Source: a virus
Length of the DNA stretch: 39,764 nt
UHGV virus genome: UHGV-0145637
Strand: one strand, 5' to 3'
Shown one piece after another: positions 9,982 through 39,764 of the stretch. The notes beneath the pieces are model-generated. The model had not been told where the DNA came from. It made no database searches and worked only from the letters and a program-made list of their open reading frames with translations. Within the stretch, counting starts at the first letter, position 1. Each line of letters starts with the position of its first letter. The translations under genes were made by a program, and so were the position numbers.

Positions 9982-10404
9982 ATGGCTGAAACACAGATGA
10001 GCATGTTTGGTGACAGCGAACAGCTGCACGCGCTGATTGACCGTCTGGATGATATTCCTGATGATGAGCTGAAAAAGAACTGGCCCGGCACGCTGCGGGA
10101 CCTGGTTGATGTGATCAGTGCTGAACTGCACCGTCAGGGGATTGAACCTGCTCAGGCGGGAATGCTTGCCCGTAAGGTTGCAGCCGCACAGGCCGGGTAC
10201 ATGGGCGGGCGTGGTTATTATCTCCCGGTCGGTGAATCCCTTTTCACCGAACTGCGCAATAATGAAATTTTTTCCCGCTGGAGCCAGGGCGAAAAAATTG
10301 AAACCCTGCGCCGCCACTACCAGATGTCAGAGACGCAGATTTACTCCGTTATCCGCAACCAGCGTCGCCTGCATCAGGAACGCACGCAGCCACGGCTTTT
10401 CTGA
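9982..10404 (+). CDS. Mor/C-family transcription activator (middle/late)
   Basis: 140 aa; C-terminal HTH-like region (...ETLRRHYQMSETQIYSVIRNQRRL) resembles the Mor/C family as recalled; only one family member in the window. Confidence 0.7.
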   Translation: MAETQMSMFGDSEQLHALIDRLDDIPDDELKKNWPGTLRDLVDVISAELHRQGIEPAQAGMLARKVAAAQAGYMGGRGYYLPVGESLFTELRNNEIFSRWSQGEKIETLRRHYQMSETQIYSVIRNQRRLHQERTQPRLF

Positions 10405-10475: not shown

Positions 10476-10976
10476 ATGCCAAAACTCCCCGCACCCCTGC
10501 GTAAAAAGCTGATTGCCCTTGTTCTGGCCGGAGCCGGGACGTTCACCATTGCCACGCACTACACCGGCTACTGGGAAGGGAAAGAAAACACCACGTACAT
10601 TGATCCCACCGGCACCCCCACCATCTGTTACGGCCATACCGGCCCGGATGTGAAACCGGGGATGACAAAAACTGATGAAGAGTGTCTGGAGCTGCTGGAA
10701 AAGGACATGAAATGGGCCTTTGCGGCTATCGATCGTCATGTTCAGGTGCCGCTTACCCGTGGTCAGACGGTGGCGCTGGCCTCCTGGATTTTCTGGGCCG
10801 GTGAAACGAACTTTCGCAACTCCACGCTCCTGTGCCTTATCAATGCCGGGCAGATGCCCGCGTCCTGTAAGCAGTATATCCGCTGGATTTATTCAAAGGG
10901 GGTAAAACTCCCCGGTCTTGAGGCCCGCCGTTCGGCGGATGAATGGTTATGTCGTTACGATTTGCCGAAAGTCTGA
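10476..10976 (+). CDS. Endolysin, phage lysozyme type with SAR-like N-terminal segment
   Basis: Gly/Ala-rich weakly hydrophobic N-terminus (LIALVLAGAGTFTIA) followed by E-x8-D-x5-T spacing (EGKENTTYIDPTGTPT). Confidence 0.7.
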   Translation: MPKLPAPLRKKLIALVLAGAGTFTIATHYTGYWEGKENTTYIDPTGTPTICYGHTGPDVKPGMTKTDEECLELLEKDMKWAFAAIDRHVQVPLTRGQTVALASWIFWAGETNFRNSTLLCLINAGQMPASCKQYIRWIYSKGVKLPGLEARRSADEWLCRYDLPKV

Positions 10977-13039: not shown

Positions 13040-13049
13040 GAGGTGAATC

Positions 13050-13298
13050 GTGGTAACAGATAACCGCTCACTGATGAGTAGTGCTCATCAGAAGGCATTC
13101 AGTCTTGCAACACAGTTACCTCCTGAAACCATAAAAGCGTGTCGTGAGTTGACTGAACTCAGCATTGCCGGGGAAATATCCCTGGAACAACTGCATTCGC
13201 TGCTGGCAGAGGCTGTCACTGATGAGTTGAGTGGCGTGGACGTGATGACTGAAGAGCTTGAGTTCCGAATCAAAAGCATTCTGACAGGTAAAGCCTGA
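13050..13298 (+). CDS. Small protein whose C-terminal tail duplicates that of the upstream gp27-like protein
   Basis: C-terminus VTDELSGVDVMTEELEFRIKSILTGKA versus VTDELRGVDGMSEQIEFRIRQMLLGKA. Confidence 0.45.
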   Translation: MVTDNRSLMSSAHQKAFSLATQLPPETIKACRELTELSIAGEISLEQLHSLLAEAVTDELSGVDVMTEELEFRIKSILTGKA

Positions 13299-17866: not shown

Positions 17867-17987
17867 CGGTCAGTGGCGGGGGTCGAACCCGCATACATGA
17901 TCCACCCGGAGGCAGGCACCGACTTTACCAGTTAAGCGTACACTGACCGCCTGTTTATTTTATATTCATCCTTTATGCGGAGGCAAT

Positions 17988-18461
17988 ATGTCATCCATTG
18001 ATGCCGCTGTCGTTGTTGACGTTACGCGTCTCCAGCGGGTGTTTGCCCGGCTTCAGTTTGTGGGCGGCGGAAAAGACCTGGCCCGCAGTGTGGCGGAGAG
18101 TCTTCTGTCATCGTCAGAAATGGCGTTTGAACAGGAAAAAGAGCCGGACGGCGAACGCTGGCATGACTGGTCAGATCCTTACCGCAAGTGGCGTACCCGT
18201 AAGGGATACACGCCCGGCAAAATCCTGACACTGAACGGCGATCTGGCCCGCCGCCTGACCACGGATTATGGCGATACCTGGGCGCTGATTGGATCAAATG
18301 AACCTTATGCGGCCATTCATCAGTGGGGTGGCCTGCCTGGTATGCCACCGGGACCGGCGGCCATTGGCGCACGTCCGTATATGGGCTTTGATCAGGTGGC
18401 AGAACAGGAGATCATGGACGAAATCAGAAAACGCTTTAAAAAGGCCACAGAAACGCCGTAA
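17988..18461 (+). CDS. Virion morphogenesis protein (Mu G-like)
   Basis: 157 aa; position between F-like and I-like genes. Confidence 0.6.
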   Translation: MSSIDAAVVVDVTRLQRVFARLQFVGGGKDLARSVAESLLSSSEMAFEQEKEPDGERWHDWSDPYRKWRTRKGYTPGKILTLNGDLARRLTTDYGDTWALIGSNEPYAAIHQWGGLPGMPPGPAAIGARPYMGFDQVAEQEIMDEIRKRFKKATETP

Positions 18462-18638
18462 TGGTTTAAGGTATACAAACGCATTGCCTTACCCTCTTCA
18501 GGCGCGTGTCGTGATTTTCTAACCTGTATTTAACGGGCTTTAAAATCTGCGTGAAGCGCCTTTCTCATTTTTCCCCTGTCAGCACTTTCTGAAGTCCCGC
18601 AAAACCGGCCCCGAAAAACACCGGCTTATGCTGCCGGA
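18462..18638. other. Non-coding gap between G-like and I-like genes; candidate strong gyrase site
   Basis: 177-bp ORF-free gap in an otherwise tightly packed operon, near the genome centre, at the same gene junction where the Mu strong gyrase site lies. Confidence 0.4.
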
Positions 18639-19763
18639 ATGAAGACGAAAAACACGCCCAAACTTGCTTATGCCATTCTGAATGCCATCAGCCTGTCCGC
18701 AGACGGGGACGGTGACTGGTGTCAGATCATGCCAGCCGGTCGGGTAAAGGCCCGTGACGGTCGCCCGGAAAAACCGGCGGAAGGCTGGCTGATTAACCAT
18801 GCGGCCGTTGAGCGCATGGTATCCCGGGTTGTGGCGCTCAATCAGCCGGTAAAAATTGACTACAACCACCAGACCCTGATTAAGGGGCATCCGGCACCGG
18901 CTGCCGGTTTTGTCATGGCCTCACCGGAAAACTTCCGCTTCAGTGAAGAGCGGGGTTTTGAAGTGCGTCCGGACTGGAACCCTCCGGCCATTGAACACCT
19001 GCGCAATAACGAATTTCCCTGGTTTTCCCCGGTGATTGGTTATGACGAAATCACCGGTGAACCTGTTGAGCTTCGGATGCTGGCTATTACCGGTGACCCC
19101 GGTCTGACTGGCATGAATCCTGTCGCCGCACTGTCGGCGGATGACCTTTATAACGCCTTAAACCCTCCTTTAAAGGACACCTCCATGAATGAGCAATTAC
19201 GCCAGTTGCTGACGGCGCTCGGTCTGACCGTGGCCGACGGTGACGAATTTACACCGGAACTGGGCACGGCGGCGCTGTCTGCCCTTACCGGGATCAAAAC
19301 CCGTGCGGATGCGCACGACACCCTGAAAACGCAGGTTGCCAGCCTGTCGGCAGAGCTGGAAACCGCAAAAGGCACACCAACTGGCGGCACTATTGATCTG
19401 ACGAAATACGTGCCCGTTGAGACGTATAACGCCCTGCGTACCGAATATGTCGCGTTGTCGGCACAACACGGCAGCACCACGCTGGAGCAGTTGCTGGATA
19501 AGGCCGAGTCCGAAGGACGCATTTTCAAAAGCGAACGCGGATACATGGAAGGACTCGGACAACAGATTGGTGTTGCGGCACTTTCTGCACAGCTTGACGC
19601 CCGCCAGCCGGTTGCGGCTCTGACCACTCTTCAGACCGACACCGTAACCGTGCCGGATAAAAAGACCGCCACCGCTGCGCTGTCGGCTGAAGATATCGCC
19701 GCCGCCCATCTGCTGGGTAAAACCGAAGCCGAGTTCCTGAAAATGAAAGAGGAAATGCAATAA
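18639..19763 (+). CDS. Head protease/scaffold protein (Mu I-like)
   Basis: 374 aa directly upstream of the major head gene; Ala-rich C-terminal half typical of scaffold region. Confidence 0.7.
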   Translation: MKTKNTPKLAYAILNAISLSADGDGDWCQIMPAGRVKARDGRPEKPAEGWLINHAAVERMVSRVVALNQPVKIDYNHQTLIKGHPAPAAGFVMASPENFRFSEERGFEVRPDWNPPAIEHLRNNEFPWFSPVIGYDEITGEPVELRMLAITGDPGLTGMNPVAALSADDLYNALNPPLKDTSMNEQLRQLLTALGLTVADGDEFTPELGTAALSALTGIKTRADAHDTLKTQVASLSAELETAKGTPTGGTIDLTKYVPVETYNALRTEYVALSAQHGSTTLEQLLDKAESEGRIFKSERGYMEGLGQQIGVAALSAQLDARQPVAALTTLQTDTVTVPDKKTATAALSAEDIAAAHLLGKTEAEFLKMKEEMQ

Positions 19764-24735: not shown

Positions 24736-24862
24736 AGAAGCCGCAATTGTGCTGGGGATGGTGACAAAAAGCGGCCCGGAGTGGGCGCTTAACCTCCCTT
24801 TATCGCAGCTTTACCGGCACTGCCGACAGACCGAAAAAATTCTCAGAACGAAGCAGTAACCC

Positions 24863-26920
24863 ATGGCAAAAAACCTGAAAGCCTCCCTGATTGTCGATTT
24901 ACTCGGCAATATTTCCGCCAAATCCCGCCAGTGGTCACAGGAGCTGGGGGCGTTCTCCCGTTCCGGCAGGACAGGCCTGGGTGGTCTTGGAAATGCAGCC
25001 CGCCGGGCCGGTCAGGAAACAGAACTTGTCGGCTCCCGTATGCAGCGAACGCTTGCCGGTGTTCGTGGCAGCATCCGCACGGTAACGTCAGATTTTGACC
25101 GCCTGCAGGGCAGCATTACCGGCACCATCGGGCGGATAAGCAACCTTTACGGGATGCTGGCGGGAGGGGCTGCGGTCTACGGTTTTAATAAAGCCTTTAT
25201 CCGCCCGGCCGCAGAGATGGAGAACTATATTCTGCGTCTCAACGCCATTAATCATGGCGATACGGCAAAAACGGAAGCAGTGAAAGCCTGGGCAGTACAG
25301 AACGCCAAAGACACCACCTGGGGGCTGGCGGGGGTTATGCAGGAATACGCCTCCAGTCGCGGGTTTGGCATGAGTGACAGGGAAGCCCGTCGCTTTATTA
25401 CCATGCTTCAGGATCAGGGCGGCTATCACGGCTGGTCACTGTCAGATGCACAGGGTGCGTCCCTGCAACTCAAACAGATGTTTGCCCGCCAGAGTATCCA
25501 GGCAGCGGACGCCAATATTCTGACCGGATACGGGATTAACGTTTACCAGTTACTGGCCGATAAGCTGGGCGTAAACCAGAAGATCATCCGTGAGAAAGGC
25601 GAAAAAGGAAAACTGGGGCCGGACAGCATTCGCCTGTTATTTCAGGTGATGGCCGAACAGGCAAAAGGTGCCCAGAAAAACGCCATGAATTCCTGGACGG
25701 GAATGACGTCCATGATGGGCGACGTCTGGGACGGATTTGCCCGCGAGGTGATGGCAAAGGGACCGTTTGACAGCCTGAAAAAGAGCCTGAAAGGCTTCCT
25801 GGATTATGCCGATGCGGCACAGAAAAGCGGCTTACAGGATAAGCTGGCCACACAGACGGCCTCAGCTCTGAATCAGGGATTTGAGTATGCCAGAGACGCT
25901 GCGACCGGCTTTTACCGGGTCATTCAGAAAGTCAGGGAAACGCTTCAGGCACTGCGCGACGCCGGTTATGGCGATGCGCTGGATCGCATTGGTCAGGGTG
26001 CGCAGACCGCCGCAAAGTACCTGATGTATATGTATCTCGCCTCCCGTGCGCTGAAGGTGCTCAGGTTTGCGGGGACGGGGGTATTACGTCTCGGCGCAAC
26101 CCCCTTACGCTATGGCATGGCGATGACCTCCGTGCTGACGTCGCCCTTCCGCAAACCGCAGACCACTGTACCGGGAACGCAGCCCGGACGCGCTGGCCGG
26201 TTCCTGAATTTCCTTACCGGGGTAAATCCGGCTGCCGTTCAGCCCGTGCTGGTCACCAACTGGCCTGCGGGTGGCCTGGCCTCAGGTGGCGGGGATGTGG
26301 TGGTCAGCGGTGACGGCAAAACCGTGCGCGGCCGTAAAAAACGCGGCCCCGGACGTGGACGGGGTGTCACGACCGTCGTGACTGCCGGTGAGCAACTGGC
26401 GGAGAGTGCCGGTAAACAGGGCTTCTTCGGTCGTATGATGAGCCGTGCCGGTGGTCTGCTAACGGCGGCCGGAAACCGCATGGGGCTGGGGCGTTTTGCC
26501 GGGCTGTTCCGTGGTGCCGGTCGGCTGGGTGGTGGTGCCCTGTGGGCCGGTGCCATGGCGGCTCCTGTACTGCTGGACAGCAGCGCCAGTGCAGCCGATA
26601 AAGCCGGTGCCGTGGGTTCCCTTGCCGGAAGTATCGCCGGTGGCGCGCTGGGGGCGGCTGCTGGTCCGGTCGGGGTTGCCATTGGTTCCACGGTGGGCAG
26701 CTATCTCGGTGATTATCTGGGGGGCTGGCTGACGCAGGCCTGGCAGAAACTGCGTGGCGGCAGTGACGAAAACGGCGGACAGGCCACCGCGAAAACCGCC
26801 GCACGGGTGGAGCTTGTGGCCCCTGAAGGCTGGCGGGCGCGCAGTATTGATGTGGATGATACCGCACAGCATGGCCTGGATGTGAACGTCTGGAACGGAG
26901 GGAACTATGGCCTCTACTGA
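24863..26920 (+). CDS. Tail tape measure protein
   Basis: 685 aa, largest tail ORF, Gly/Ala-rich C-terminal region. Confidence 0.8.
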   Translation: MAKNLKASLIVDLLGNISAKSRQWSQELGAFSRSGRTGLGGLGNAARRAGQETELVGSRMQRTLAGVRGSIRTVTSDFDRLQGSITGTIGRISNLYGMLAGGAAVYGFNKAFIRPAAEMENYILRLNAINHGDTAKTEAVKAWAVQNAKDTTWGLAGVMQEYASSRGFGMSDREARRFITMLQDQGGYHGWSLSDAQGASLQLKQMFARQSIQAADANILTGYGINVYQLLADKLGVNQKIIREKGEKGKLGPDSIRLLFQVMAEQAKGAQKNAMNSWTGMTSMMGDVWDGFAREVMAKGPFDSLKKSLKGFLDYADAAQKSGLQDKLATQTASALNQGFEYARDAATGFYRVIQKVRETLQALRDAGYGDALDRIGQGAQTAAKYLMYMYLASRALKVLRFAGTGVLRLGATPLRYGMAMTSVLTSPFRKPQTTVPGTQPGRAGRFLNFLTGVNPAAVQPVLVTNWPAGGLASGGGDVVVSGDGKTVRGRKKRGPGRGRGVTTVVTAGEQLAESAGKQGFFGRMMSRAGGLLTAAGNRMGLGRFAGLFRGAGRLGGGALWAGAMAAPVLLDSSASAADKAGAVGSLAGSIAGGALGAAAGPVGVAIGSTVGSYLGDYLGGWLTQAWQKLRGGSDENGGQATAKTAARVELVAPEGWRARSIDVDDTAQHGLDVNVWNGGNYGLY

Positions 26921-28265
26921 CACGCCGGGGCGTGGCTCCTTTCGTGGCGTACCGTTCCTGGTTTATCAGGAGCAGCGGGAACGGGGCGGACGTAACATTG
27001 TGCGCCGTGAATACCCACTGCGTGAAAGCGGCGGTGCGGATGATCTGGGGCCAAAACTCCCGGAGTTCACATTCACGGTTCTGGTTACCGGAGACGATCT
27101 TCAGACACAGCGAAGCCGCCTGCGTGATGCGCTGCGTGCACCCGGTGCCGGTGAACTGATGCACCCGGATTACGGCACGTTAAACGTGCTGATAAACAGC
27201 TTTGAAAGCCGTTATAACGCCAGCGAGCAGGGAACGGTTGAGTTCACGATCAACGTGATCCCCGCCAGTGACGATACCGCCCCTGCGGTGGCAGAAGATA
27301 CGGCAGCTGCGCTGGAGCAGAAAAGCGGCTCAGCAATGAATCAGCTGTTTAACACGCTTTCAGACGGCTGGACGGTGATTTCAGACGGTCTGCATGATGT
27401 ACAGGCCATGACCGACACCATCAGCGATAAGATTGATGCACTGGAGAATGCCGTTTCGGGGATGGGGATTGTGCAGGATATCAGTGCCTTTACGGCCAGT
27501 TTTACTGCCCTGAAAGGCAATGCCGCCGCCCTGATTAATGCGCCCCGTCGCATGGCTGAATCGCTGGCCGGAATGTTTGCCGTGCTGACCGGGCTGCCCG
27601 GCGATCCTTCCCTGTCTCTGACCGGAAAAGCCGGAACGCCGTCCGGCAGCCTGACCACAAACCGTGACAGCATGGCAGAGCAGGCCATGCCGCAGCTGTA
27701 CCGCACACTTTCCTCCCTGCGTTACACCCTCAGCGAACAGGATGATCCACAGCGCCTGATTGGCCTGACGCCTGCGGCACAGAAAAATATCCGTCTGCTG
27801 CGGAGCGTGATGCAGAGTGCAACCCTGGTGTCGCAGGCACAGACGCTCGGAAAACTGCTGGATCAGGTCATCCGGCAGAATACGACGCACGTTCAGGATA
27901 CTGACCGTTCGGGCGGACTGGCCTGGCTGGAAAGTTCTGCTGATGTGCAGCGTATCAACCGGGATTTGAGCGATGCCATGGAACAACAGGTGCTGGATCT
28001 GTCCGCACAGGGCTATACCGGGACTGCCCTTGCATTACGTGATGCAGGGCTTGCGCTGACAGAAGATTTAACCACACGGAGCGTGCATCTTCCCGGTGCT
28101 TTTCAGGTCATGGTTCGCACCACCGAACCGGCACTGGTCACGCTGTACCGTGCCACCGGCAACAGCAGTCGCTGGCAGTATTTTGTCCGCAGAAACAATA
28201 TCCCCGATCCGGTTTTTGTTCCGGGTGGCCGCAGCGTGGAGGTGATCAGTGAGCAGCAGGATTGA
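26907..28265 (+). CDS. Mu-like DNA circulation protein (gpP-like)
   Basis: 452 aa after tape measure, as in Mu. Confidence 0.6.
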   Translation: MASTDTPGRGSFRGVPFLVYQEQRERGGRNIVRREYPLRESGGADDLGPKLPEFTFTVLVTGDDLQTQRSRLRDALRAPGAGELMHPDYGTLNVLINSFESRYNASEQGTVEFTINVIPASDDTAPAVAEDTAAALEQKSGSAMNQLFNTLSDGWTVISDGLHDVQAMTDTISDKIDALENAVSGMGIVQDISAFTASFTALKGNAAALINAPRRMAESLAGMFAVLTGLPGDPSLSLTGKAGTPSGSLTTNRDSMAEQAMPQLYRTLSSLRYTLSEQDDPQRLIGLTPAAQKNIRLLRSVMQSATLVSQAQTLGKLLDQVIRQNTTHVQDTDRSGGLAWLESSADVQRINRDLSDAMEQQVLDLSAQGYTGTALALRDAGLALTEDLTTRSVHLPGAFQVMVRTTEPALVTLYRATGNSSRWQYFVRRNNIPDPVFVPGGRSVEVISEQQD

Positions 28266-34537: not shown

Positions 34538-34622
34538 CGCTTTTTTGAATTTCCGCAAAACACATATTTTTCAGCGGTCGCTATTCTGACTCTGTTTAAT
34601 TCAGAAACAGGCAGAAAAGACG

Positions 34623-36677
34623 ATGTCAGACTCCAAGTGGAAAATGCTCTCCGCCATGCCCGGAGAGTTTTCAGTCAAGGTTGCCGGTGGCACGGTGGCA
34701 TTTATTGAAAGCCCTTTCCGCCCTTCGGGTAATAAAGGGGGGATCACCTTCGCAGACTGCGTGATCCGCTTCAGCACGAAAGAGCCATTATGGGTAATGC
34801 CGGTATCCGGTAATCCCAGTGCAGAAATCACCAGTTCAGGCGTGACTGGCATCATTCCAATCACATCTGACGTGGCCGGAACGCTCACGCCCTCCGACTG
34901 GAATGCACCGGATAACGCCGGGCCTTCCGGTAGCACGAATGGCAGCAGTTCAGAGCCGGAATATTACTTTGTTGTCATTCTCGCGGGTCAGTCAAATGGC
35001 ATGGCCTACGGCGAGGGGCTGCCGTTACCGGATTCGTTTGACCGCCCGGACCCACGCATTAAGCAACTGGCACGCCGCAGTACGGTAACGCCCAACGGTA
35101 CGTCGTGTACATACAACGACATCATTCCGGCAGACCACTGCCTGCATGATGTTCAGGATATGAGCGGGATAAACCACCCGAAAGCTGATCTGGCAAAAGG
35201 CCAGTACGGGACTGTCGGTCAGGGGTTGCATATTGCCAAAAAACTGCTTCCCTATATCCCACAGAATGCCGGGATACTTCTGGTGCCCTGTTGTCGTGGC
35301 GGGTCAGCATTCACCACTGGAGCCGACGGCTCATTCAGTGAGGCCAGCGGTGCTTCCGCTGATTCTTCACGCTGGGGGGCCGGTAAACCTCTGTATCAGG
35401 ACCTGGTAAGCCGCACCAAAGTCGCGCTGGCGAAAAACCCGAAAAACAAACTTCTGGCTGTGGTCTGGATGCAGGGAGAGGCAGACCTTGCCTCAGGAAG
35501 CCAGCAGCATAATAGTTTATTCACGGCCATGGTTCAGCAGTTCAGAACTGACCTGGCTCCGCTTGCTGCGCAGTGCGTGAGTGGAAATGCCACCACGGTG
35601 CCGTGGATTTGCGGTGATACCACGTATTACTGGAAAAACGCTGGCACCGATAAATATGAGGCAGTATACGGTGGCTACAAAGGCAAGGAAGCACAGAAAA
35701 TTTTCTTTGTACCGTTCCTGACGGATGAGAATGGACAGAGCACGCCAACGAATGCTCCGGCGGAAGACCCGGATATTGTGGCTGTCGGGTATTACGGTGC
35801 AGCATCCCGAACCCAGGGCAGTTTTGTTTCGACACAGCGTGACAGCCATTTCAGCTCATGGGCACGCAGGGGCGTCATTTCAGACCGTCTGGCCTCAGCT
35901 ATTATGCTCCATGCAGGGCGCACGGCTGAACTGATGCGCGGGCAGACCGTGACACCACCGGATGAGAAGCCGTCACCTGATACACCATCAAAACCGTCCA
36001 CGCCACCCGCAGACACCACGACGATGAGTACGCTATTTGCTTACCGGGCATCTGAGTCTGAAGGACGGTTGACACCACAGGGTTGGGCTGCCGGAGGTGG
36101 CAAGGCTCAAATCGTGGATGATGCCGGAGCCAGCGGGGGTAAGGCAATGAAACTGACCAAGGAAACAGGAAGAGCCCCCTGGTACCTTGAGCATGATGCT
36201 GGTAATGGTGCGGACCTGCTGGGTAAAGGTGGTCTTGTCAGTTGTCGTTTTAAACTCGATGGCGCGCTTACGGCTAATCAGTACGCACTGGCGCTGTACT
36301 GGCCGGTTTCTGCCCTGCCGCAAGGGGTTACTCTGGAAGGAAATGCCGGTCATAACCTGCTGGCATCGTTCTACGTACAGAGCGATGCCACAGACCTTAA
36401 CGTGATGTATCACAAAGGAAACACGGCGCAGAACACGAAGCTGGGGTCATTCGGCGCATTTAATAACGAATGGCATACGCTGGGCTTCCGTTTTGCCGGT
36501 AACAACAGTATTGAGGTGACACCGGTCATTGATGGTAAGGACGGGACACCATTCATGCTGTCGCAGTCTCCGGTCGGCACGTTTACGGCAGACAAGTTGC
36601 GCGTGACCGATATCACTAAAAATGCGACTTACCCGGTACTGATTGACAGTATCGTGGTGGAAGTGAATAACGCGTAA
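34623..36677 (+). CDS. SGNH-type (sialate-O-acetylesterase-like) esterase domain protein with Pro/Thr linker and C-terminal beta-rich domain
   Basis: Motifs VILAGQSNGMAYGEG and VVWMQGEAD; linker PPDEKPSPDTPSKPSTPPADTTT; about 210-aa C-terminal domain; no N-terminal signal peptide. Confidence 0.5.
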   Translation: MSDSKWKMLSAMPGEFSVKVAGGTVAFIESPFRPSGNKGGITFADCVIRFSTKEPLWVMPVSGNPSAEITSSGVTGIIPITSDVAGTLTPSDWNAPDNAGPSGSTNGSSSEPEYYFVVILAGQSNGMAYGEGLPLPDSFDRPDPRIKQLARRSTVTPNGTSCTYNDIIPADHCLHDVQDMSGINHPKADLAKGQYGTVGQGLHIAKKLLPYIPQNAGILLVPCCRGGSAFTTGADGSFSEASGASADSSRWGAGKPLYQDLVSRTKVALAKNPKNKLLAVVWMQGEADLASGSQQHNSLFTAMVQQFRTDLAPLAAQCVSGNATTVPWICGDTTYYWKNAGTDKYEAVYGGYKGKEAQKIFFVPFLTDENGQSTPTNAPAEDPDIVAVGYYGAASRTQGSFVSTQRDSHFSSWARRGVISDRLASAIMLHAGRTAELMRGQTVTPPDEKPSPDTPSKPSTPPADTTTMSTLFAYRASESEGRLTPQGWAAGGGKAQIVDDAGASGGKAMKLTKETGRAPWYLEHDAGNGADLLGKGGLVSCRFKLDGALTANQYALALYWPVSALPQGVTLEGNAGHNLLASFYVQSDATDLNVMYHKGNTAQNTKLGSFGAFNNEWHTLGFRFAGNNSIEVTPVIDGKDGTPFMLSQSPVGTFTADKLRVTDITKNATYPVLIDSIVVEVNNA

Positions 36678-38944: not shown

Positions 38945-39036
38945 ATTTAGTATCAAATAAGTTGCGTATCGGCGTTTTTCAGCGGTATCAAATGAAATGC
39001 AAATCGGTATCAAAAAAATCGCCGCGCTATAATACA
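38945..39036. repeat. Right-end region with three GTATCAAA repeats (attR-like) and putative terminus ...TAATACA
   Basis: GTATCAAA at 38950, 38985 and 39007; reverse complement of the terminus begins TGTATTATAGCG. Confidence 0.5.
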
Positions 39037-39735: not shown

Positions 39736-39764
39736 CTGTCTCTTATACACATCTGACGCTGCCG
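39736..39764. other. Nextera adapter read-through (library artefact)
   Basis: CTGTCTCTTATACACATCT (reverse complement of the Tn5 mosaic end) followed by GACGCTGCCG. Confidence 0.9.

Follow-up and report, generated by a model that had tools for sequence, protein, structure and literature searches.

Phage Mu's strong gyrase site (SGS) is the textbook DNA site that recruits gyrase, folding the 37-kb element so that its ends meet, and it is a standard substrate in mechanistic and structural work on the enzyme. In the Mu genome (AF083977), the region between genes G and I is annotated with a gyrase cut site at 17879/17880, a terminator at 17908-17953 predicted by TransTermHP, and the C-dependent promoter P_I at 17977-18043. 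The 133-bp Mu SGS fragment and the motif consensus of equal length from Sutormin 2019 (PMC6379681) place a 4-bp cleavage stagger at Mu 17876-17879, which agrees with the annotated cut. A/T clusters of the Mu right arm lie at about +19.5, +40.5, +52, and +63, and those of the genome-wide gyrase motif at +20.5, +31, +40, +51, and +62.5. An SGS lacking its right arm loses preferential gyrase activity, whereas the left arm is dispensable, and in a cryo-EM structure the right arm carries the transported (T) segment (PMC13284261, PMC10052514). A Mu phage deprived of its SGS shows a delay of ~100 min (PMC10052514).

An extended right arm sets the Mu-type site apart (PMC13284261). The plasmid sites of pSC101 and pBR322 and the 130-bp Topo-Seq motif share with the site described here a cleavage core, flanking arms, and an A/T periodicity of ~10.75 bp, but they have no sequence homology to it. 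Other sites that were tried could not replace the Mu SGS in replication (PMC10052514). According to the review by Toussaint and Higgins, solely the SGS of the Mu-like prophage of E. coli O157:H7 Sakai, of all those tried, promoted Mu replication, a test that the review credits to Oram & Pato 2004 (PMC10052514). That prophage, Sp18 (coordinates from PMC7430833), is of the same phage type as the element described below.

The G–I junction of the window

The DNA analyzed here, termed the window, is the whole contig of UHGV virus genome UHGV-0145637, 39,764 nucleotides in length. It encodes a complete Mu-like late region in which a 177-bp non-coding gap, at 18462-18638, separates a G-like from an I-like gene according to ORF calls and Pfam (Table 1). 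The earlier note had described this gap and proposed it as a candidate strong gyrase site. The G-like gene shares 72% nucleotide identity with Mu G over 130 bp, and the I-like protein is 50% identical in amino acids to Mu I. The junction is thus the one at which AF083977 places the gyrase cut site, as had been claimed. Alignment to Sakai Sp18 sets the prophage at about 8 to 39036 of the window, with 47 bp missing at the left end, so the gap lies at ~47% of the element, compared with 48.7% for the Mu cut site; the proposed central position is therefore borne out. With a probability of about 0.8, the gap is a homologue of the Mu G–I control region, composed of a Mu-type SGS, an intrinsic terminator, and a C-dependent late promoter that lie side by side and partly overlap.

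The view that late genes are otherwise spaced by a few bp holds roughly; exceptions are a 121-bp gap between F and G (17867-17987) and a 127-bp gap at 24736-24862. No other non-coding gap among the late genes is as large as the G–I gap, and a seeming gap at 13040-13297 contains an ORF of 82 amino acids. Flanked by the D-like and E-like terminase genes, this ORF (13050-13298) has a strong ribosome-binding site. The C-terminus of its product, AVTDELSGVDVMTEELEFRIKSILTGKA, is a duplicate of the one in the preceding D-like protein, and the 13050-13298 stretch is absent from Sakai Sp18. At the two ends of the contig, positions 1-54 and 39736-39764 are Illumina Nextera adapter/transposase sequence (…AGATGTGTATAAGAGACAG and CTGTCTCTTATACACATCTGACGCTGCCG), and ~700 bp of non-phage DNA (39037-39735) lie beyond the right end of the prophage.

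The F–G gap is itself non-coding and is absent from Mu, whose F and G genes overlap. Within it, a tRNA-like element at 17868-17947 on the minus strand, opposite to the late genes, matches the Rfam tRNA family with 31 bits (gathering score 29, E 8e-5) and is annotated by RefSeq as 'tRNA-OTHER'; ARAGORN finds nothing in this element. The RefSeq annotation was considered as a feature of the G–I gap and discarded, since it falls in the neighboring F–G gap. The tRNA-like element has canonical acceptor, D, and T arms but an aberrant anticodon arm. Relative to Sakai Sp18, the acceptor stem carries two compensatory double changes (GUCAGUG/CACUGAC versus GCCGGUG/CACCGGC), and the anticodon region is unrelated to that of Sp18. 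A sigma-70-like promoter, TTGCCT-18-TAAAAT, is found just upstream of the element at 17986-17957 on the minus strand.

Table 1. Features at and around the G–I junction, with mean pairwise differences among 15 distinct Sp18-type sequences
Feature	Positions	Strand	Details	Mean pairwise difference
Mor/C-family activator gene	9982-10404		Pfam PF08765	
Phage lysozyme gene	10476-10976			
F-like gene, neighbor			Pfam PF04233	
G-like virion morphogenesis gene	17988-18461	+	ORF; Pfam PF05069, E 2.9e-34	
Predicted ~130-bp gyrase footprint	18415-18544		-63 to +66 around the predicted cleavage position	
Predicted 4-bp cleavage stagger	18478-18481		AACG; ±~3 bp; from Mu alignment, right-arm distance, and best register	
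SGS right-arm homologue	18493-18546		phased T-tract / pyrimidine-purine step / A-tract signals	
Right-arm signal	18514-18522		GATTTTCTAA	
Right-arm signal	18527-18533		TATTTAA	
Right-arm signal	18539-18546		CTTTAAAAT	
Predicted intrinsic terminator of the upstream late transcript	18500-18572	+	imperfect hairpin 18500-18561; U-tract TTCTCATTTTT 18562-18572	
Predicted late-promoter activator box	18586-18606	+	TTTCTGAAGTCCCGCAAAACC; imperfect dyad centered at 18594; candidate C-like (Mor/C) site	
-10 hexamer of the predicted I-gene late promoter	18627-18632	+	TATGCT	
Inverted repeat	18622-18638		CCGGC-TTATGCT-GCCGG; encloses the -10 hexamer and abuts the start codon; minus-strand hairpin in scan	
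I-like protease/scaffold gene, leading the next late operon	18639-19763	+	ORF; Pfam PF10123, E 1.7e-75	
G-like gene end				0.028
Putative core	18462-18495			0.087
Right arm plus hairpin	18496-18561			0.006
Two spacers				~0.2
I-like gene start				0.184

The putative right arm and its relatives

The reading of the gap as a gyrase site is supported by its position, by homology in the right arm, by conservation across the phage family in a fixed register, and by near identity to a reported site. Alignment to the Mu SGS, which the earlier note had suggested as a check, yields a specific similarity of 34 bp, 79% identical to Mu 17901-17934 (E 0.002 over the whole window). By itself, a similarity of 34 bp at 79% is short and modest. 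In the pairwise alignment it forms one conserved island, window CGTGATTTTCTAACCTGTATTTAACGG versus Mu CGGGATTTTTAAACCGGTATTTAACGG, amid divergent non-coding DNA, and the matching Mu bases lie at about +32 to +58, within the right arm. Over the predicted footprint, identity between Mu and the window is ~60% (81 matches in a 137-column alignment).

The register of the footprint is carried over from Mu, with position 0 at Mu 17876 and the annotated cut at 17879/17880. The predicted stagger of the window aligns locally to Mu AATC 17876-17879 and keeps a constant distance to the right-arm repeats. The last ~47 bp of the G-like gene would form the left arm. Measured from the predicted cut, phased T-tract/A-tract signals stand near +40, +52, and +64 in both phages. 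Three of the four signals of the family are found in the window, with their steps 12 and 10 bp apart; the first (~18493-18501), which is T6A4 in Mu, is degenerate in the lineage of the window, and units 2 to 4 are kept. In further contrast to Mu, the window has a stronger fourth signal, CTTTAAAAT, and a different core sequence.

The conservation of the block was followed through G–I junctions of 72 loci from IMG/VR, with I identities of 32-100%, and of species-representative genomes (Citrobacter braakii, Edwardsiella anguillarum, two Kluyvera, Erwinia tracheiphila, and a Pontibacterium MAG), to which the Mu and Sakai Sp18 junctions were added. An nhmmer profile of the island finds one significant match per genome; it always falls on the coding strand, in most cases 100-230 bp upstream of I. 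Across all of Mu the profile has a single match, at 17891-17937 (E 1e-11; next best E 0.1), and the same is true of the window, at 18493-18541 (next best E 5). A profile built from 13 lineages without the window or Sp18 type still places its top match in the window at 18503-18541, with an E of 0.04 for both strands of 39.8 kb. The block recurs in lineages whose I proteins are down to ~36-50% identical, including those of Citrobacter, Kluyvera, Erwinia, and Edwardsiella. Within contigs of 34-41 kb that are nearly complete, its position is 0.41-0.62 of the length, mostly 0.45-0.52.

In sequence, the island repeats units of T3-6 (G/A) A2-4, with a G+C-rich stretch after each. Their pyrimidine-purine steps stand at 0, +20, +31, and often +41, which is a spacing of 20/11/10 bp across lineages and a repeat of ~10.3 bp. 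Several loci, some of them distant, are missed or weakly scored by the profile (L104, with an I protein 36% identical, L063/L111, and L102). Upstream of I, L104 and L063/L111 have TTTAAA-type units ~20 and 11-12 bp apart, and L102 has two units only, 11 bp apart. L103 and L105 carry a perfect palindrome of TTTATAAA units instead. In L035 / L072, of the Edwardsiella anguillarum type, an A+T-rich insert of ~600 bp separates the block from I (locus 554-1200), and the G-like ORF seems to extend into the phased block.

The A/T pattern of the family fits the gyrase motif in the expected register. The mean A/T profile of 15 lineages aligned on the island, with Mu and the window excluded, best matches the Topo-Seq consensus with cleavage at -14/-13, counted in bp upstream of profile position 1, compared with -13 for the cut mapped in Mu. 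The window taken singly gives 18478 as the best position 0 by A/T-versus-G/C correlation with the same consensus. Because the lineages are homologous to Mu, this fit is a consistency check and not an independent prediction. A/T periodicity at 10.75 bp is likewise supportive of a gyrase site but weak as a genome-wide discriminator, with the gap in the top 1-3% of the window versus the top 0.1-0.3% for the Mu right arm. A scan for matches to the 133-bp Topo-Seq consensus, by nucleotide or by A/T versus G/C, was rejected as uncalibrated because the true Mu SGS did not rank near the top of the Mu genome. A central transposase-binding (att-like) site was also considered and dropped, as the profile match near the right end (38964-38993) is weak (E 5.7) and the sequences differ.

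The closest characterized relative is the Sakai site. Sp18 and the window are identical at 124/130 bp of the predicted footprint, at all positions of 18496-18561, and at 160/177 positions of the whole gap, and they share the promoter box and the -10 hexamer. Four of the six footprint substitutions surround the predicted cleavage site (18475, 18480, 18486, 18495), and the U-tract and promoter spacer are divergent. In the 2004 work of Oram & Pato, the Sakai site is said to have also shown specific cleavage and enhanced processive supercoiling. Right-arm homology, the top profile match, and near identity to the Sp18 site thus uphold the proposal of a strong gyrase site. As an account of what the gap contains, the proposal is incomplete, since a terminator and a late promoter are also there.

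Relatives are found in 228/5426 complete E. coli genomes, and E. coli FORC_069 is 100% identical to the window over 1.1 kb. Mean pairwise differences per segment (Table 1) mark the right arm plus hairpin as the most constrained part of the locus among Sp18-type variants. The variability of the predicted cleavage bases fits the loose cleavage specificity of gyrase. Among close relatives, 18562-18585 and 18607-18626 have indels and a high variability that is not codon-like.

Predicted terminator and late promoter

The earlier note had pointed to an inverted repeat followed by a T-rich run. Both are present, with AGGCGC at 18500-18505 and GCGCCT at 18556-18561, but they form the base of a predicted terminator and are not a feature of the gyrase site. 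Folded as RNA, the hairpin 18500-18561 has a dG of -23.7 kcal/mol (z -3.5), and 0/200 shuffles are as stable; folded as DNA, its z is -3.6. The U-rich UUCUCAUUUUU follows directly 3' of the hairpin, and the G stop codon immediately precedes the predicted terminator. A long, interrupted stem makes the structure atypical, and the hairpin escapes a simple scan whose loop limit is 8.

The predicted terminator physically overlaps the right arm, as in Mu, where P_I follows likewise. In both phages the hairpin encloses units 2-3 of the array, and its outer stems differ between them. Elsewhere, in loci of the C. braakii type and in L073 and L095, the island is followed downstream by a conventional hairpin and T-run. 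Because the island is fixed while the terminator moves, the constraint acts on the DNA and not on RNA structure.

The gyrase site alone does not explain the length of the gap, because approximately its last 55 bp are a predicted C-dependent late promoter. In Mu late promoters, the dyad bound by the C dimer is centered at -43.5, and a -10 hexamer is present without a -35 (PMC2582627). Like Mu with its Plys, PI, PP, and Pmom, the window has a Mor/C-family gene, dyads ~44 bp upstream of the predicted start, and such promoters upstream of the lysis gene and of I. A good -35 is lacking here as well. A second copy of the 21-mer of the I-gene box stands at 10398, and a third, with 3 mismatches, at 34542; the former precedes the lysozyme gene by 78 bp and the latter a gene for 684 amino acids by 81 bp, and the chance expectation for such matches is 0.01. 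At the same (+/-1) distance from the box, the three promoters have the hexamers TACGCT, TATGCT, and TATTCT (TAYNCT). The I-gene and lysis-gene copies of box and hexamer are conserved in Sp18. An alternative -10, CAAAAC at 18600-18605, which has local similarity to Mu P_I, was rejected in favor of TATGCT because TAYNCT is equally spaced in all three promoters and the geometry fits the -43.5 dyad.

The box differs in sequence from that of Mu, with TTTCTGAWRTYCCGCAAAWCC in the window versus ttat-N6-ATAAcC. The third copy precedes a carbohydrate-esterase-like gene in the window, as opposed to com/mom in Mu. No fourth box, with 3 mismatches or as a box-plus-hexamer pattern, was found as a P_P equivalent inside the N-like gene (26907-28265). 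The 684-residue product of 34623-36677, preceded by the box at 34542-34562, has a SASA carbohydrate-esterase domain (PF03629) and DUF6645. Its gene lies downstream of the invertible tail-fiber region, is a homologue of Sp18 ECs_4993, and is predicted to be a late-expressed accessory gene.

The predicted start of the I late transcript is 18638-18639, at or 1 nt before the ATG, while the Mu transcript has a leader of ~25 nt. Read by eye, C. braakii-type and L023-type loci would share this start-at-ATG geometry, unlike Mu. The mRNA of the I protease/scaffold may be leaderless, or have a 1-nt leader, in Sp18-, Citrobacter-, and L023-type phages. The I start codon is also abutted by an inverted repeat, of differing sequence, in every lineage inspected, namely in Mu, L023, C. 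braakii, Kluyvera, and Erwinia, as judged by eye.

Competing readings and significance

The gap might serve for transcriptional punctuation only, with the conserved block acting as a binding array of another protein, from phage or host, or as an accessory of termination or pausing, without a special role for gyrase. Such an account is unlikely, although much of the gap is clearly taken up by a terminator and a promoter. The units (kTTTTGAAmGG) are directly repeated, fairly specific, and on one face of the helix, like a cooperative binding array, and they are found where scores for the generic gyrase motif and for periodicity are unremarkable. Published deformability scores do not pick out the Mu SGS (PMC13284261). 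Against punctuation alone, the homologous Mu bases lie inside the experimentally defined right arm of the SGS, the A/T pattern that is conserved agrees with the gyrase motif at the register of Mu's mapped cut, and the Sakai site reportedly functions as an SGS in Mu (PMC10052514). The block is also not a terminator accessory, because the position of the terminator shifts between lineages while the block is fixed.

It is very improbable that the conserved element acts as RNA, be it a structured 3' end, a small RNA, or a regulatory leader. The hairpin is stable and the stems flanking the block differ between lineages, but it is the loop, not the stems, that is conserved, and several lineages have the block outside any hairpin. 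Searches of the gap gave no Rfam family match (best E 2.4-6.6, far below gathering scores) and, with ARAGORN, no tRNA or tmRNA. A coding gap has a negligible probability. The earlier note had raised the prospect that the region encodes the true N-terminus of the I-like protein; however, no in-frame start lies between the preceding stop and 18639, which rules out an upstream extension of the protein, whose N-terminus aligns with the Mu I start. For a small unannotated protein, the candidates are two mechanical ORFs that cross the gap edges, 18289-18522 (+) and 18579-18890 (-), and nothing else: no ORF of at least 20 amino acids lies wholly inside 18462-18638, and the variability in 18562-18585 and 18607-18626 is unlike that of codons.

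For the preferred reading, a control region with a Mu-type SGS, the mechanism is taken from work on Mu and applied by homology. [quoted passage not shown] Because the site sits at the prophage center, the supercoiled loop growing from it would bring the ends of the ~39-kb prophage together for transpososome assembly and replicative transposition. The terminator at 18500-18572, whose hairpin encloses right-arm signals, would end the lysis/head late transcript. A C activator at 18586-18606, with the -10 at 18627-18632, would drive I from a start at or next to its ATG.

Since the equivalent site of the same phage type was characterized two decades ago, the finding is in this respect already known, and the presence of the Sp18-type allele in the window does not in itself add new biology. 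If unpublished, two things may be new. One is the predicted leaderless I transcript, which, if true, would keep I low in relation to the internally initiated scaffold. The other is the explicit repeat signature across enterobacterial Mu-like phages. The signature is short and searchable, consisting of three or four T-tract/A-tract signals at 0, +20, +31, and +41, and occurs once per genome, centrally placed in Mu-like prophages from several genera of enterobacteria and in register with the Mu cut as mapped. It could serve to annotate such sites and in the design of right-arm variants that probe gyrase-site strength. More speculative and rather doubtful is a coupling of the end of late transcription to the loading of gyrase through the overlap of terminator and right arm. 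The same holds for the idea that the phased kTTTT(G/A)AAmGG array is a sequence-specific signal beyond a passive wrap, addressed to gyrase in a Mu-specific mode or to a second phage or host factor. If so, it would explain why solely Mu-type sites support Mu replication.
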